DNA of 4,607 bases from a virus (Duplodnaviria > Heunggongvirae > Uroviricota > Caudoviricetes). The translations under genes and the position numbers were made by a program. The notes beneath the pieces were generated by a model. It was given only the letters and a program-made list of their open reading frames with translations, had not been told where the DNA came from and did no database searches. Positions 1 to 4,607 of this stretch are shown piece by piece. The stretch lies in IMG/VR virus record IMGVR_UViG_3300028453_000030, one strand, 5' to 3'. The stretch's first letter is position 1. Every line of letters begins with the position of its first letter.

Positions 1-53
1 ATAACACACCGAAAAAACTCACAATTAATAACCTATGATATACATACTGTTTA

Positions 54-173
54 TTATGGTTGAATAAGCCACTCGATATCTGGTGCTACGGAAGTGTCCA
101 CACGGTTTAGCAGCACCCGATACTTTTTCCAGGCTTCCAGCAACAAGTTTTCTTCCTCCGTTGCATATACAGC
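54..173 (-). pseudogene. tfa: 3' remnant of a tail fibre assembly gene (tfa): C-terminal 39 codons only, no start codon
   Basis: Minus-strand translation of 57-173 is [39 protein letters not shown], then TAA at 54-56. It is bounded upstream by an in-frame TGA (174-176) and has no ATG/GTG. The motif [24 protein letters not shown] matches the C-terminus of phage lambda Tfa as I recall it; this was not searched. Confidence 0.6.
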
Positions 174-183
174 TCACCTTTTT

Positions 184-477
184 TCACCCACGATTAACCA
201 ACAGCCAGACCAGCAGACACGCCACCACCGGCACAGCAAAATCCATCAGGCTTGCCACATCCCATGCACGTGTATCAAAACCGCCCCACCACGGCATATT
301 CATACGCTTGCCATGCCCGAACATTTCAATCCAGCGATATTCTGCCTGGGTGTGTTCACGCGCAATGAAGAACGTACAACCGGCTATCGCCCCGTAAGCC
401 CAGTTCCCGGTAAAAAGACCAATCAGTAGCTGCGCAGCCACAGCACAAAGCGCATGAAGGAAAGGTGTTATATCCAT
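184..477 (-). CDS. small integral membrane protein (~97 aa, three predicted transmembrane helices); function unknown, candidate prophage moron
   Basis: ORF 184-492 on the track. I prefer the ATG at 477-475 (MDITPF...) because AGGA sits 5 nt upstream; the track's TTG at 492 and the ATG at 483 lack a usable spacer. Hydrophobic stretches ITPFLHALCAVAAQLLIGLF, AYGAIAGCTFFIA and VASLMDFAVPVVACLLVWLLV suggest three helices. The antisense plus-strand ORFs are low-complexity. I do not recognise the family. Confidence 0.55.
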   Translation of the reverse strand: MDITPFLHALCAVAAQLLIGLFTGNWAYGAIAGCTFFIAREHTQAEYRWIEMFGHGKRMNMPWWGGFDTRAWDVASLMDFAVPVVACLLVWLLVNRG

Positions 478-490
478 TTTCATCCTACCC

Positions 491-513
491 AATAAAACGG
501 GGCGCTCGGCCCC
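491..513 (-). terminator. putative rho-independent terminator after the 346-aa gene
   Basis: On the minus strand, 2 nt after the TAA stop (522-520) lies GGGGC-cgagc-GCCCC (plus 499-513, 5-bp GC stem, 5-nt loop) followed by GTTTTATT. The stem is short, so strength is uncertain. Confidence 0.4.
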
Positions 514-519
514 TTAATA

Positions 520-1560
520 TTATTTAGACGCAAGCGCCGCCTCAATTGCAGATAATCTTTGTCTTAATTCTGCGTTTTCTTCTTCCAGTGCTGTTATTCT
601 GTCATCTGACTCTCTGGCTACCTGAACAAGCAAGCCAGTAACACCAGAATAATCTACTGTGTAATAACGTTCACCTTCTTCACCTTCCGATCCGCTTGCA
701 CCGTCCTGATATTTCATTGCGGAACCTACAACTTCTGGGATTGCTTCCAGAGCTTCCTGTGCAATGACACCAGCATAGGGCATACCGTTTTCTTTAAGCG
801 TGTATGTATAGCCGTTCATTTTACGGATGCGGTCGGTTGCATTATCGATCACCTGAATGTTGTCTTTCAGATCCCGGTCGGAATGCTGGTTAAATGTGGT
901 GGCATGACATGCACCATTAACGCTTAACATATAGGTGTTATCGGTATTTTTCTGCGCATAGAACATATAAGCGCCACCATCAACACCGACTTCATAAACA
1001 ACAGGACGGCTGGAGTTGCCCCACAATTGAGCAGTAACACCAGCATAAGCGGTTCCCTGTGTGTTTAATGTCATGGTTGACCCATGATTGGCATATTTGA
1101 TCTGTAATGTGTCGGTGTAATCAAATTTAATAAGCGCGTTACTTCCACGCTTGCTGTATGACATAAGGCAGTTACCCATTTTGAGGTATCCGCTGTCACC
1201 GGGAAAAATCATCGTACCGCCATAAAGGTTGGTAAAGTCCCAGCAAATGTTTGTCCCGTTATCGTTCAGGTTAAGGCGCGCCATTGCGTTACCTGGACTG
1301 TCTATCCATTTTTTGAGGTATAGTTCGCAATACGCATCCTCAACACCTGCCGTCCTGTGAGTTGAGCGGAGTTTTCTCCCAAATATAGCTCCGCTAGTTG
1401 GCAATACCTGCTGATACCATGAAACAGACCAGTCACCAACGATTTCATCTTTGCTGTCTACATATAATTTTGTTGCGTAGCTTCCTTGATCGTTTTTTAA
1501 TTTGCTAACGTCGGATTTTAGCGTTTTGATGTCATCAGGAATTACTGTCGATGTAGCCAT
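520..1560 (-). CDS. tail fibre / tailspike-like protein with C-terminal intramolecular chaperone (peptidase S74-type, endosialidase-chaperone) domain
   Basis: 346-aa ORF with RBS GAGG 7 nt upstream of the ATG at 1560. Residues ~227-346 (plus 523-882) read SDRDLKDNIQVIDNATDRIRKMNGYTYTLKENGMPYAGVIAQEALEAIPEVV...YYTVDYSGVTGLLVQVARESDDRITALEEENAELRQRLSAIEAAL. This is the S-D-x-x-x-K ... IAQE ... terminal coiled-coil pattern of self-cleaving C-terminal chaperone domains of phage fibres (K1F endosialidase, T5 pb1). The N-terminal ~226 aa are beta-rich with a short coiled-coil-like start. Confidence 0.85.
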   Translation of the reverse strand: MATSTVIPDDIKTLKSDVSKLKNDQGSYATKLYVDSKDEIVGDWSVSWYQQVLPTSGAIFGRKLRSTHRTAGVEDAYCELYLKKWIDSPGNAMARLNLNDNGTNICWDFTNLYGGTMIFPGDSGYLKMGNCLMSYSKRGSNALIKFDYTDTLQIKYANHGSTMTLNTQGTAYAGVTAQLWGNSSRPVVYEVGVDGGAYMFYAQKNTDNTYMLSVNGACHATTFNQHSDRDLKDNIQVIDNATDRIRKMNGYTYTLKENGMPYAGVIAQEALEAIPEVVGSAMKYQDGASGSEGEEGERYYTVDYSGVTGLLVQVARESDDRITALEEENAELRQRLSAIEAALASK

Positions 1561-1569
1561 TTTTCTTCC

Positions 1570-1851
1570 TCACATCCAGCCACGAAGTTGATGCTCAACA
1601 GCAACCACGTATTCATCGAATATTGACGATATTTGCGAATCATTAATGATGCGCACGTTTACAAAATATCCGTCTTCCTTAACACATACCGGTTCGCCAT
1701 CTTCAGTCAGTTCTCCGGTTTCTTTGTACACATTACCTATCACGTCAATAAGAATATCATCCTGCATCGACTCGTCATCATAATAGCCAATGCTCTCCAT
1801 AAAGGCCGAAAAGTCGGCCCTGTCTGCAAATTTGAGTGTTAAATCTTTCAT
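1570..1851 (-). CDS. small acidic hypothetical protein (93 aa), translationally coupled to the tail fibre gene; possible fibre chaperone or accessory protein
   Basis: The ATG at 1851-1849 overlaps the stf TGA stop (1850-1848) as ATGA, and GGAG lies 8 nt upstream inside the stf 3' end. The protein is D/E-rich (MKDLTLKFADRADFSAFMESIGYYDDESMQDD...). It has no resemblance to lambda Tfa; family not recognised. Confidence 0.55.
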   Translation of the reverse strand: MKDLTLKFADRADFSAFMESIGYYDDESMQDDILIDVIGNVYKETGELTEDGEPVCVKEDGYFVNVRIINDSQISSIFDEYVVAVEHQLRGWM

Positions 1852-4244
1852 TTAATACTCTCCCCCATTTGCGCATCAGTTAATTCTTTATGCCAGAGAC
1901 GAAGATTTCTCAAATGGCCGAATAGATGACGAGTTCCCGATGTGGCTTGACCTCCAATTCGAATAAAGGTCCGTGTTTTTACGCCCGTCCACTCCGTTTT
2001 CATAGTTTTAGTAGCCTCACCGTTAGAAACTACTCGTTTAGTACCATCAGAATAAATATTAAAACCACCAATGAATTTTCGAACATCAGTTCGACCAGCA
2101 AACACACTAGAAACGTAAGTACTTGTCGACGCTTTATAAGTTTGTATATAAAGCTGACCGTAATATTTCTCAGTTGTGTTAAAAGCGTATGTAATTGACT
2201 CAATAGGTGGCACACCAGAAAAATCAAAAATACGCGGTGCTACATTAGGAGGAATATCGCCCCAATTTCTATTGACCTCGACAAGACACGTAAGCGGTCT
2301 ATTATAGATATTATTTTCAGTTGGGATCGTCACCATATCACTGGAGCGGGTTGCGGGTGCAGTTGTCGTAATAACAAAAGATGAAGCACATCCGCCGTTT
2401 TCAAATTGTGGTGTTGCAAGGTAAATATAATCTCCCGCTTCAGTTATACCACCTTTTTTCGGCGCATACTGAATCATTGCGCCAATTAAGGCTTCACCTT
2501 CAACAGCTTCTATAGTTGCCTCATAGAAAATCCACCCTGTAACCGGATCTTTAGTTGCAGTAGCTGCTATTCTATTGGCTGCTCCGCCAGTTTTTTCTAT
2601 TATCAGAGTTCCGAAAGTTAAATAAGCATCTCCTAAAAATGTATAAACCGACCCATCGTATTTTTCAAAACGCAAACGACAACGAAGACCATCAGGAGCT
2701 TTAACCCTGCATGAAACAGTGCAATACTTATTATCGCCACTAACATCAATCCCCCGGGATGCACTGCATGTATGCAGACTAAGTGCAGATGATTGTCCTG
2801 TCATATTATCTTTTGTTCGCATTTTGGCATATAAAAAACCAAATTCATCAACACCATTATTAGTTTTATCGATATTGCTGGTACTCGTCCATTCAGCGGG
2901 AGTATTGGATTTAACAAAATAGTTAGTGCGCTGTCCTTCAATCAATAAACCTTCTTTTTCAAATCGTGGCTCATCAATTTTAGCAACACTAAATACGCCT
3001 GATTTATTGATATATGTGGCAGTTGATGCGCGTTTAAACTTAACAACCTTGTCGCCAGGCATCGTTATTTCATCATCACCAATAACAATTTTTTTATATG
3101 ACGGCGAAAAGCCCGTAATCATATCCAGTGAATCGTTAAACGGTATCCACACATCAGGCAGTGGCTGTAAGACATATTTATACGGCTCTGCTGCCTGACT
3201 TGCATACTCTCTGGCTGCGTCTTCACTTGCTTTAGCTGCTGTCTGGCTTGCTGCCGATGCTTTCGCCGAGTTCGCCGCTGCAGTCTCGCTTGTCTTTGCA
3301 TTGGTTTCACTGGTTTTTGCCGCTTTTTGACTGTTGGCTGATGCAGTGGCAGAAGCAGCCGCCGCGCTTGCAGAACCAGCTGCCGCGCTCTCGCTTTGGG
3401 CTGCTGCAACCTGGCTGTTTTTCGCCGCAGTTTCGCTGGCTTTGGCATTCGTTTCGCTGGTCTTCGCTGCCGTCTGGCTGGACTTTGCGTTAGTTTCACT
3501 CGTCTTCGCAGCTTTCTGGCTGTTAGCCGCAGCAGTTGCTGATCCAGCTGCTGAAGTCGCAGAACCGGCTGCCGCGCTCTCGCTTTGGGCTGCTGCAACC
3601 TGGCTGTTTTTTGCCGCAGTTTCACTGGCTTTGGCATTCGTTTCGCTGGTTTTCGCTGCCGTCTGGCTGGACTTTGCGTTGGTTTCGCTCGTCTTTGCGG
3701 CTGTCTCGCTATTTTTCGCGTTGGTTTCTGATTTTTTGGCTGCTGTCGCGGAGTTTGCCGATGCAGTCTTTGAGGTCGCTGCCGCCTGTGCACTATTAGC
3801 TGCATTCGTTTCTGAGGTTTTCGCCGCGTTCTTTGATGATGCCGCTGCAGTTTCGGATTTCTTTGCCGCCGCTGCGCTCTGAGAGGCGGCTTCGGCGTTG
3901 CGTGCCGCTTCTTCCACCATTACCTCAAAACGACGCAATGCCTCCGGCATGACATCCTCTTCCGTCATGGCACCGAGAAAATCATTCAGCGTGCCTGGTC
4001 TGGAACCTTCATAGACGGTAATGGTCCCGGCATGTGAAGGCGGAAAACCTTCAACCAGCAGGGTGACGCTGTACTGGCCATACTCAACATCCATGCTGTA
4101 ACGCCCGGCTTCATCCGGATTTTCAGAGGCCACCGTATTCACCAGTACCGTGGTGCTGTTACGCTTTGCTTTGAGCTGAATAGTGCAGTTCTGTATTGGT
4201 TTTCCTGCACCGTCTTTCAGCACGCCTGAAATCTGTACTGCCAT
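1848..4244 (-). CDS. stf: side tail fibre protein (Stf-like, 798 aa): lambda-type N-terminal domain, heptad-repeat Ala/Ser/Thr shaft, divergent C-terminal receptor-binding region
   Basis: ORF 1848-4250 on the track. I place the start at the ATG 4244-4242 (MAVQISGVLKDGAGKPIQNCTIQLKAKRNSTTV...), which has GGAG 5 nt upstream; the track's GTG at 4250 would add two residues. The N-terminal ~115 aa closely match lambda Stf (MAVKISGVLKDGTGKPVQNCTIQLKA..., recalled). Residues ~117-346 are AK.SETN-type heptads. The C-terminal ~450 aa (plus 1851-3212) are unlike lambda Stf and end ...FIRIGGQATSGTRHLFGHLRNLRLWHKELTDAQM, reminiscent of a LamG/concanavalin-like jelly-roll C-terminus. Confidence 0.9.
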   Translation of the reverse strand: MAVQISGVLKDGAGKPIQNCTIQLKAKRNSTTVLVNTVASENPDEAGRYSMDVEYGQYSVTLLVEGFPPSHAGTITVYEGSRPGTLNDFLGAMTEEDVMPEALRRFEVMVEEAARNAEAASQSAAAAKKSETAAASSKNAAKTSETNAANSAQAAATSKTASANSATAAKKSETNAKNSETAAKTSETNAKSSQTAAKTSETNAKASETAAKNSQVAAAQSESAAAGSATSAAGSATAAANSQKAAKTSETNAKSSQTAAKTSETNAKASETAAKNSQVAAAQSESAAAGSASAAAASATASANSQKAAKTSETNAKTSETAAANSAKASAASQTAAKASEDAAREYASQAAEPYKYVLQPLPDVWIPFNDSLDMITGFSPSYKKIVIGDDEITMPGDKVVKFKRASTATYINKSGVFSVAKIDEPRFEKEGLLIEGQRTNYFVKSNTPAEWTSTSNIDKTNNGVDEFGFLYAKMRTKDNMTGQSSALSLHTCSASRGIDVSGDNKYCTVSCRVKAPDGLRCRLRFEKYDGSVYTFLGDAYLTFGTLIIEKTGGAANRIAATATKDPVTGWIFYEATIEAVEGEALIGAMIQYAPKKGGITEAGDYIYLATPQFENGGCASSFVITTTAPATRSSDMVTIPTENNIYNRPLTCLVEVNRNWGDIPPNVAPRIFDFSGVPPIESITYAFNTTEKYYGQLYIQTYKASTSTYVSSVFAGRTDVRKFIGGFNIYSDGTKRVVSNGEATKTMKTEWTGVKTRTFIRIGGQATSGTRHLFGHLRNLRLWHKELTDAQMGESIK
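3213..3902 (-). repeat. coding 21-bp (heptad) periodic repeat region forming the fibre shaft
   Basis: The protein reads as consecutive heptads (AKTSETN, AKSSQTA, AKASETA, AKNSQVA, AAQSESA, AAGSATS ...). The DNA shows recurring gctttggc / gtttcgctgg / ctttgcg units. Confidence 0.7.
3370..3704 (-). repeat. in-frame tandem duplication, period 189 bp (63 aa, nine heptads), about 94% identical over ~146 bp per copy
   Basis: Copy 1 at 3370-3515 and copy 2 at 3559-3704 align with an offset of exactly 189 bp and about eight transition differences. The protein segment AKTSETNAKSSQTAAKTSETNAKASETAAKNSQVAAAQSESAAAGSA occurs twice. Confidence 0.85.
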
Positions 4245-4259
4245 ATTCACTCCACAAAT

Positions 4260-4290
4260 AAAAAAGGCGCCATTTCTGGCGCCCGTATTT
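4260..4290 (-). terminator. rho-independent terminator between the J remnant and stf
   Basis: Plus 4266-4283 is GGCGCCA-tttc-TGGCGCC (7-bp GC-rich stem, 4-nt loop). On the minus strand the hairpin is followed by TTTTTT (plus 4260-4265), then ATTTGTGGAGTGAAT-ATG of stf. The plus-strand side has only a weak T tract (cgtattt), so it works mainly for minus-strand transcripts. Confidence 0.6.
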
Positions 4291-4302
4291 GGGTTATAAA
4301 AC

Positions 4303-4480
4303 TCAACTGATACTGATACCGGCTGTTGATTTCTTCATCACGACAACAAGAAGGTCGCTGATACTGGTCGTTGGCGTCCAGTTATTAGCACCATATGAAG
4401 AAACATTGAAAGTCAGGGTGACATGACCGTGTCCGGCAGGCATATCAATGACGGATGAAAATACCCTGCTGACATCCGTC
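4303..4480 (-). pseudogene. J: 3' fragment of the host-specificity / central tail fibre gene J (last ~58 codons), truncated at its 5' side by the IS insertion
   Basis: Minus-strand translation of 4306-4479 is [58 protein letters not shown], with TGA at 4305-4303. Lambda J ends ...VFSRIVDMPAGRGNVILTFTLTSTRHSADIPPYTFASDVQVMVIKKQALGISVV (recalled), giving the same VxDMPAG.G.V.LTF ... SD..V.V.KK...GIS pattern. The frame runs straight into the IS terminal repeat at 4481. The internal ATG at 4443 has no RBS. Confidence 0.7.

Positions 4481-4607
<127 letters not shown>

Follow-up and report, generated by a model that had tools for sequence, protein, structure and literature searches.

The DNA analysed here, referred to as the window, is a stretch of 4,607 nucleotides (nt) from IMG/VR virus record IMGVR_UViG_3300028453_000030. 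It is the distal tail (host-recognition) end of a defective lambda-like prophage at a DLP12-type position. Between the end of the tail-tip gene J and a remnant of the tail fibre assembly gene tfa, it carries a side-tail-fibre cassette of four genes, stf (fibre A), p93, fibre B, and p97. The cassette is real but ordinary. It is a standard phage-21-type (phage-21/DLP12-type) module standing in place of the lambda Stf/Tfa module, and its gene order is widespread: many lambdoid coliphages and prophages, phage 21 among them, form a large family in which this arrangement is common and conserved.

Genes and proteins of the cassette

All genes of the window lie on the minus strand and are given below from high to low coordinates. 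The open reading frames of stf, p93, fibre B, and p97 are all intact. Translations and Pfam matches confirm the features and coordinates listed in an original prediction made from the sequence, which comprised a J C terminus, no lom, stf, a 93-residue acidic protein, an S74 fibre, a membrane protein, and a tfa remnant.

4481–4607, minus strand: 3′ end of an IS3-family insertion sequence (IS), with the terminal TGTAGTGG at 4481–4488 (plus strand); it truncates or interrupts J
4303–4480, minus strand: C-terminal 59 codons and stop codon of J, the tail-tip protein, of the phage-21/Jouyvirus receptor-binding allele (Pfam and NCBIfam matches)
4265–4284, minus strand: terminator-like GC hairpin with a trailing T-run in the gap from J to stf, at the position of lom in lambda (consensus scan)
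1848–4244, minus strand: stf (fibre A), 798 residues from the ATG at 4244 (PF08400; phrog_1419 over its full length)
3276–3710, minus strand: 189-bp (63-residue) tandem duplication in the Stf shaft, 2.3 copies with 85% identity
1570–1851, minus strand: p93, a 93-residue acidic protein with an isoelectric point of 4.05 (phrog_1361, 1.5e-46)
520–1560, minus strand: fibre B, a 346-residue short tail fibre; a docking-type motif at the N terminus is followed by a variable body and, at the C terminus, an S74 intramolecular chaperone (PF13884; phrog_4563 over its full length)
523–882, minus strand: chaperone domain of fibre B, residues 227–346, with a predicted cleavage site at H226|S227
499–513, minus strand: terminator-like hairpin separating fibre B from p97, GGGGCCGAGCGCCCC with GTTTTATT after it (consensus scan)
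184–477, minus strand: p97, a 97-residue membrane protein (phrog_1443, 3.3e-58)
54–173, minus strand: tfa remnant, the last 39 codons and the stop codon, with no start codon (Caudo_TAP match)

From the N to the C terminus, Stf comprises a tail-attachment domain, a lambda-type Ala/Ser/Thr shaft, and a predicted LamG/ConA-like head. The ATG at 4244 has GGAG 6 nt upstream, and an alternative GTG at 4250, the mechanical start of the open reading frame, lies two codons earlier. The N terminus matches PF08400 (1.6e-66, 222.9 bits against a cutoff of 26.6), and residues 3–96 match residues 1–94 of the solved lambda Stf (PDB 9e7m/9mgh, 1e-48). As in other lambdoid phages, stf lies downstream of J, in synteny with lambda, phage 21, and Tritos.

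At the protein level, Stf is 58% identical to lambda Stf over 342 residues and about 88% identical over the first ~118, and the Ala/Ser/Thr-rich "KTSETNA" shaft is common to both. As the alignment spans the N-terminal domain and the shaft, the exchange point is placed past the shaft, near residues 345–360. The original prediction had Stf keeping its N-terminal attachment domain alone, which does not hold for an alignment of ~340 residues that includes the shaft. The window thus resembles lambda in the Stf N-terminal domain, the Ala/Ser/Thr shaft, and the position downstream of J. It differs in that the C-terminal receptor-binding part of lambda Stf and the Tfa chaperone are replaced, leaving 39 startless tfa codons. 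Many relatives of Stf have 735–736 residues, versus 798–800 here. This difference in protein length would correspond to one copy of the shaft repeat and would alter the length of the fibre.

The head of Stf matches the NCBIfam model NF048003 GTA_spike_fiber at residues 436–636 (57.5 bits against a cutoff of 36). An AlphaFold2 model of residues 372–800 has a mean predicted local distance difference test (pLDDT) score of 60, with 80–93 in the core. Foldseek aligns this model with laminin LG4-5 (5.9e-6), CBM40 sialic-acid-binding modules (1e-4), clostridial toxin Hc domains, neurexin LNS, and fibre chains of the Pseudomonas phages Pa193/E217. In a viral library, the model matches tail fibres of coliphages and numerous proteins named "Concanavalin A-like lectin/glucanase" (2e-10). 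A LamG/ConA-like β-sandwich (jelly-roll) fold is supported by these model-based matches, in agreement with the LamG-like fibre tip of the original prediction, and a surface glycan would be the natural receptor. The most conserved parts of the head, the first ~75 and the last ~35 modelled residues (Stf residues ~372–442 and ~762–798; window 2920–3137 and 1851–1960), are the worst predicted, with pLDDT below 50. This pattern would fit segments whose folding depends on the trimer or on a partner such as p93.

The ATG of p93 overlaps the stop codon of stf (ATGA), which suggests co-translation. The protein has no significant match in Pfam, NCBIfam, or PADLOC, and sequences in the PDB match at chance level only. 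An hhalign comparison of p93 with lambda Tfa gives a probability of 0.15%, with no detectable relation. An AlphaFold2 model from a shallow alignment (16 sequences, 81–92% identical) has a pLDDT of 43, and a profile search returned only close Escherichia homologues among the matches listed. The family is very small: an exhaustive HMMER search of 1.84 billion proteins yielded 51 cluster representatives.

Fibre B starts 9 nt past the p93 stop codon. Its residues 227–278 match Peptidase_S74 (PF13884, 4.8e-14; 52.8 bits, with the cutoff at 22). An SDxxxK-type motif is present as S227-D-R-D-L-K, in alignment with S-D-R-R-I-K of phage S16 gp37 (6f45). By homology, the chaperone, residues 227–346, would be cleaved off to leave a mature fibre of 226 residues. 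The N-terminal motif MAT(S/V)TVIPxDIxxLK opens every allele in the 80 IMG/VR loci compared. Short alleles of 234–245 residues also bear an S74 domain. One 234-residue allele was missed by tblastn with the chaperone domain of the window and was considered as a non-S74 form; this was ruled out by a Pfam S74 match of 27.3 bits.

Relatives and origin of the cassette

Among complete E. coli genomes, 47 contain at least 80% of the window at ~98–99% identity. Of 5,426 such genomes, 988 carry the p93 gene, with up to 5 copies per genome, and 512 have fibre B at a coverage of at least 80%. The exact protein sequences of p93 and p97 occur on ~1,000 contigs each. In relatives, the genes are annotated in series as tail fiber N-terminal domain protein, hypothetical, tail fiber domain protein, hypothetical, and incomplete tail fiber assembly protein, the last being the RefSeq label of the tfa remnant. 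A literature search returned no paper giving a function for p93, p97, or the cassette.

The cassette is also present in the isolated phages Tritos, 2G7b (Nesevirus), PhiR63_1, HannyBb, and PhiR49_1. Like the window, Tritos, 2G7b, PhiR63_1, PhiR49_1, and DLP12-position prophages carry stf, p93, an S74 fibre B, p97, and the tfa scar. Their p93, fibre B, and p97 are 96–100% identical to those of the window (in Tritos, 96%, 99%, and 99%, respectively; in PhiR63_1, 100% for p97). Tritos also lacks lom and has the same J/stf junction. Tritos and 2G7b differ in having another Stf head allele (55% identity). PhiR49_1, the only isolated phage with a whole-gene Stf match (98.4% at the nucleotide level), has the same head as the window but a 234-residue allele of fibre B. 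Unlike the window, Tritos, 2G7b, and the PhiR phages are complete phages with an intact J.

Phage 21 (OL657228, Jouyvirus) shares with the window an identical J C terminus (58/58 residues), the absence of lom, and a terminator between J and stf, annotated at the same place as the hairpin of the window. Its Stf, of 686 residues, likewise combines a lambda-type N terminus with a LamG-type head (52% identity). Its p92 is 54% identical to p93, its p97, labelled "putative membrane protein", is 95% identical, and a tfa scar follows p97. It differs in lacking a fibre B gene, in having an intact J, and in a tfa scar cut to 23 codons by the sitABCD island (sit operon). Lambda_4B5/2E9 and ev243 have a short version like that of phage 21, with no fibre B. 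The features that mark the phage-21/DLP12-type cassette, namely stf with a LamG-type head, a p93 homologue, an optional fibre B, p97, and a tfa 3′ scar ~10 nt past the p97 stop codon, are all found in the window. The mark of a lambda-type Stf/Tfa module, an intact Caudo_TAP gene after stf, is absent; only the 3′ remnant is present.

The prophage site is indicated by the low-coordinate end. Window 1–140 is 100% identical in ~800 E. coli genomes, strains C and B among them, and appY/ompT adjoin the match in a B-lineage strain. This identity and neighbourhood assign the window to a DLP12-type prophage site. Beyond the tfa scar (window 1–53; 5759–7164 of the related locus L095), the sequence heads toward appY/ompT.

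At the high-coordinate flank of the cassette, the translation of 4306–4482 yields 59 residues, with the stop codon at 4303–4305, and matches Pfam Ig_GpJ_C (1.9e-16) and positions 1106–1163 of 1163 of NCBIfam lambda_TipJ (2.3e-19). The tfa remnant at 57–173 has 39 codons, with a stop codon at 54–56 and an in-frame stop just upstream, and matches positions 95–130 of 131 of Pfam Caudo_TAP (8.6e-15). Both flanks were therefore correctly named as J and Tfa in the original prediction. They were also called lambda-like, which is true of the tfa remnant (81% identical to lambda Tfa residues 156–191) but not of the J end, which is 46% identical to lambda J versus 100% to J of phage 21 and Lambda_4B5.

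Homology to J ceases exactly at 4480, at the IS terminus. Over its 127 nt, the IS end agrees at 99% identity with the terminus of an IS3-family transposase element annotated in another locus (L094). The exact IS/J junction, with the IS end set against J codon −59, occurs in none of the 5,426 complete E. coli genomes and looks strain-specific. The J remnant is the result of IS truncation or interruption, unrelated to fibre exchange, so that J does not bracket the swap as had been proposed. The absence of lom, correctly noted in the original prediction, is a normal variant: the terminator-like hairpin at 4284–4265 stands between J and stf, and phage 21, Tritos, and some ten IMG/VR loci likewise lack lom.

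A singular, undescribed host-range swap between J and tfa in this very genome, the view of the original prediction, is scarcely credible in the light of these relatives. It is true that the nucleotide match to lambda breaks off inside stf and resumes in the tfa 3′ end: blastn hits are confined to 3895–4261 (stf 5′ end) and 68–165 (tfa 3′ end), each at 84.7%. Against a singular event, hundreds of genomes, as well as isolated phages such as phage 21, have the identical cassette and junctions, all four proteins belong to full-length PHROG families (phrog_1419, 1361, 4563, and 1443), and the J boundary is an IS insertion. Furthermore, the tfa remnant starts 10 nt past the p97 stop codon, and this spacing is identical in relatives wherever the contigs extend. 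The common junction indicates that the replacement took place once, in an ancestor, and not in this genome.

The prediction was right in kind in proposing a modular swap of the lambda-type Stf C-terminal part and Tfa for another receptor-binding module, with a tfa scar left behind. It had Tfa replaced by four genes; the 39 remaining tfa codons bear out the loss of Tfa, but the replacement consists of a new C-terminal half of Stf and three genes. It also described the arrangement as unrecognised. The synteny comparison largely identifies the order as a common conserved one, shared by the 47 near-identical genomes, Tritos, 2G7b, the PhiR phages, and phage 21, in addition to the 988 genomes with p93. 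The locus serves as a calibration case: it looks foreign beside lambda, yet it belongs to the two or three side-fibre modules that are standard in lambdoid prophages of E. coli.

It is quite improbable that the cassette is a functionless relic, drifting DNA in a defective prophage whose fibre genes are unused by the host. The truncation of J at the IS3-family end and the lack of the exact IS/J junction in all 5,426 genomes favour this reading. In a B strain, moreover, J has been fused beside the gene for the terminase small subunit, and the DLP12-position prophages of E. coli B and K-12 are known remnants. As J is cut by the IS, the cassette is probably unable to build particles in this genome. 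On the other hand, the four open reading frames are intact, and their products are 98–100% identical to those of plaque-forming phages, apart from p93 of Tritos (96%) and its Stf head (only 55%). It is also documented that infecting lambdoid phages can acquire side-tail-fibre genes from defective prophages (PMC3945230). A relic reading concerns the host context and is compatible with a role of the module in a phage.

Exchangeable blocks and a proposed two-protein fibre

Modularity was assessed in the 80 IMG/VR loci that encode p93, with allele sharing defined as at least 90% nucleotide identity to the window. The segments are as follows.

2920–4260: stf N terminus, shaft, and neck; 58–70% of loci share the allele and 90–99% align
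1960–2920, minus strand: variable core of the Stf head (residues ~442–762), the first exchangeable receptor-binding block, a predicted ConA/LamG-like β-sandwich, recognised from allele shares and breakpoints; 23–24% of loci share the allele
1501–1960, minus strand: conserved linker, made up of the last ~37 residues of Stf (FGHLRNLRLWHKELTDAQMGESIK tail), the whole of p93, and the first ~16–20 residues of fibre B (MATSTVIPDDIKTLKSDVSK); 76–80% of loci share the allele and 94–100% align
520–1500: fibre B body; ~50% of loci share the allele
200–400: p97; 75% of loci share the allele

Alignment breakpoints recur at ~2920, ~1960, and ~1510. Head alleles (99, 76, 55, 50, 45, and 42% identity) pair freely with fibre B alleles, and p93 remains steady at 93–100%. 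Exchange thus affects two blocks independently, the core of the Stf head and the body of fibre B, with a conserved linker between them. The exchange points at Stf residues ~442 and ~762 and fibre B residue ~16 are natural splice sites, which could guide the design of chimeric lambda-type fibres.

Parts of the module also occur in virulent phages. Outside the lambdoids, p93 homologues are found in Nonagvirus ESCO3/JenP1, Drexlerviridae such as SLUR29, Dhillonvirus, Tequintavirus L6jm, and Vequintavirus nimi. Homologues in 186 phage records are 37–54% identical to p93, and 93% in ESCO3. In five loci that were read, the p93 gene directly follows a fibre gene with a start/stop overlap, and the last ~430 residues of the fibre are 37–56% identical to the Stf head; in the other p93 records listed, a gene labelled as tail fibre or tail protein overlaps the match or adjoins it. 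A StfC-type head (37–56% identity) followed by p93 with the start/stop overlap is found in Nonagvirus ESCO3, Warwickvirus SLUR29, Tequintavirus L6jm, and Vequintavirus nimi. Altogether, a StfC-type fibre gene immediately precedes the p93 homologue in lambdoid, T1-like, T5-like, 9g-like, and rV5-like phages. An S74 fibre B with the MAT(S/V)TVIP motif comes next in ESCO3, SLUR29, and L6jm (MVTKTVIP in L6jm), but not in nimi.

The locus of ESCO3 (Escherichia phage vB_EcoS_ESCO3, locus L008, 5031–7642) is ~90% identical to the window at the nucleotide level over the head, p93, and fibre B. At the protein level, both p93 and the N-terminal part of fibre B are 93% identical. An identity of ~90% implies a recent tail-fibre exchange between virulent and temperate lineages. 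The lateral fibre loci of Nonagvirus ESCO3/JenP1, Drexlerviridae SLUR29, and Tequintavirus L6jm resemble the window in three successive genes: that of fibre A, whose product has a StfC-type head, the overlapping p93 gene, and the gene of an S74 fibre B. They differ in having N-terminal anchors fitted to their own tails and in lacking p97 and the tfa scar.

We regard it as probable, and as the best explanation of the locus, that the phage-21-type module encodes a side fibre with two receptor-binding proteins that no longer needs Tfa. Stf trimers would anchor to the tail tip by the lambda-type N-terminal domain and shaft and would display a ConA/LamG-like lectin head for a surface glycan. With its translation probably coupled to that of stf, and as a constant companion of this head type, p93 is proposed to be a fibre-A-coupled accessory factor, acting in head assembly as a chaperone or as an adaptor. 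Fibre B would fold by its own S74 intramolecular chaperone, cut at H226|S227. Its N-terminal peptide may dock at the junction of the Stf tail and p93, adding a second specificity in a branched or two-protein fibre. With one fibre bringing p93 and the other chaperoning itself, the module would supply its own folding help; Tfa would then be redundant, and only the scar of one ancestral replacement would be left. A Tfa-free module would simplify fibre engineering if p93 were its sole accessory factor.

The proposed fibre would parallel the branched, L-shaped fibres LtfA/LtfB of the T5-like phages DT57C and DT571/2. These are encoded by two adjacent genes, and the second fibre is attached via the first; each of LtfA and LtfB has an O-antigen receptor-binding part, and their S74 chaperones are autocleavable (PMC4728585, PMC10713586). 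More generally, lateral fibres may consist of one or several polypeptides (BASEL, PMC8594841). In DT57C, S74 domains end both fibres, whereas in the window a LamG-type head terminates fibre A, and a small protein, p93, is a separate partner. Branched attachment has been seen for DT57C; here, the indication comes from the conserved linkage block in the genes alone. The papers searched mention no p93-like gene for DT57C, a statement drawn from those papers and not from the DT57C locus. A tblastn search with fibre B residues 1–45 (E ≤ 0.1) matched only lambdoid, Nonagvirus, and T1-like phages; DT57C LtfB and phiEco32 gp15 were not matched.

Alternatively, Stf and fibre B may be independent, with no branching. 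In such an arrangement, p93 would be a chaperone of Stf only, a functional replacement for Tfa that is not part of the virion, and fibre B would attach elsewhere on the tail tip via its N-terminal peptide. We consider this unlikely, although it accounts for several observations. A p93 with a StfC-type head and no adjacent fibre B is found in phage 21, 4B5, ev243, and nimi, the stf/p93 overlap would couple p93 to Stf, and fibre B alleles reassort independently of the Stf head. However, fibre B is found only directly after a StfC-type fibre and p93 in four lineages with unrelated tail tips (lambdoid, T1-like, T5-like, and 9g-like), which argues that its partner lies inside the module and not in the tail tip. 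Moreover, the Stf tail, p93, and the N terminus of fibre B form one conserved block.

Several points weigh against the branched two-protein fibre as proposed. A contact of fibre B with Stf or p93 is suggested by the conserved linkage block only, and this linker could be a mere block of recombination homology. As phage 21, Lambda_4B5, ev243, and nimi have p93 without fibre B, p93 is not solely a fibre B adaptor. The structural evidence is also limited. The Stf head model is moderate (mean pLDDT 60) with its most conserved N- and C-terminal segments poorly modelled, and p93 has neither a usable structure (pLDDT 43) nor a detectable relation to Tfa. The role proposed for p97 is drawn from distribution and position alone. 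Finally, with J disrupted here, the cassette may not build virions in this genome.

The membrane protein p97 and the tfa scar

In the proposed module, p97, which accompanies the cassette in temperate phages only and follows a terminator-like hairpin, would probably be a moron-type membrane protein, possibly one of superinfection exclusion. Hydropathy analysis places hydrophobic segments at residues ~3–24 and 72–95, with a Trp-rich middle. Nothing significant was found for p97 in Pfam, NCBIfam, or PADLOC, and PDB sequences match at chance level only; the PADLOC defence models gave no match for any of the four cassette proteins at E ≤ 0.01. Full-length homologues (at least 77% identity) are all from Escherichia phages with genomes of ~39–50 kb, mostly recognisably lambdoid or Stx-converting, and p97 is absent from the virulent phages that bear the fibre module. 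A promoter scan of the window returned fewer sites than shuffled controls, and none on the minus strand upstream of p97.

Distant homologues of p97, with 36–47% identity, occur in marine and Aeromonas phages (H163, Halomonas phage phiHAP-1, 13853–14122; H164–H167, Aeromonas). In phiHAP-1, the homologue adjoins a putative tail fibre assembly gene. There are hints here of a fibre-linked role of this membrane protein family beyond E. coli.

A broader proposal, which we put forward tentatively and with slightly more doubt than belief, concerns p93 and p97 together. In it, p93 founds an uncharacterised, narrow family of small acidic proteins obligatorily coupled to LamG-type heads in five enterobacterial phage lineages. 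The protein would be an accessory unrelated to Tfa, either a head chaperone or an adaptor that plugs the S74 fibre onto the head to give a branched fibre of two specificities. The matching p97 would be a temperate-only membrane protein guarding lysogens from module-bearing phages. Both are very common proteins in a well-defined genomic context, and the remaining interest of the locus lies with them; they would be easy genetic targets in Tritos, 2G7b, and the PhiR phages.

A candidate small RNA, Rfam IS009, on the tfa scar (window 88–186, minus strand) was rejected, with a score of 57.6 bits versus a gathering threshold of 117 in a sequence-only match to a model without base pairs. The 3′ part of IS009 simply matches the conserved tfa 3′ coding sequence, and the IS009 candidate appears to overlap a tfa remnant. 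In several relatives, a second tfa fragment lies past a ybcY-like methyltransferase gene (L003, 10792–10926; L005, 9428–9726; L009, 7577–7882), a layout that mirrors the tfaD/ybcY/tfaX order of K-12 DLP12.

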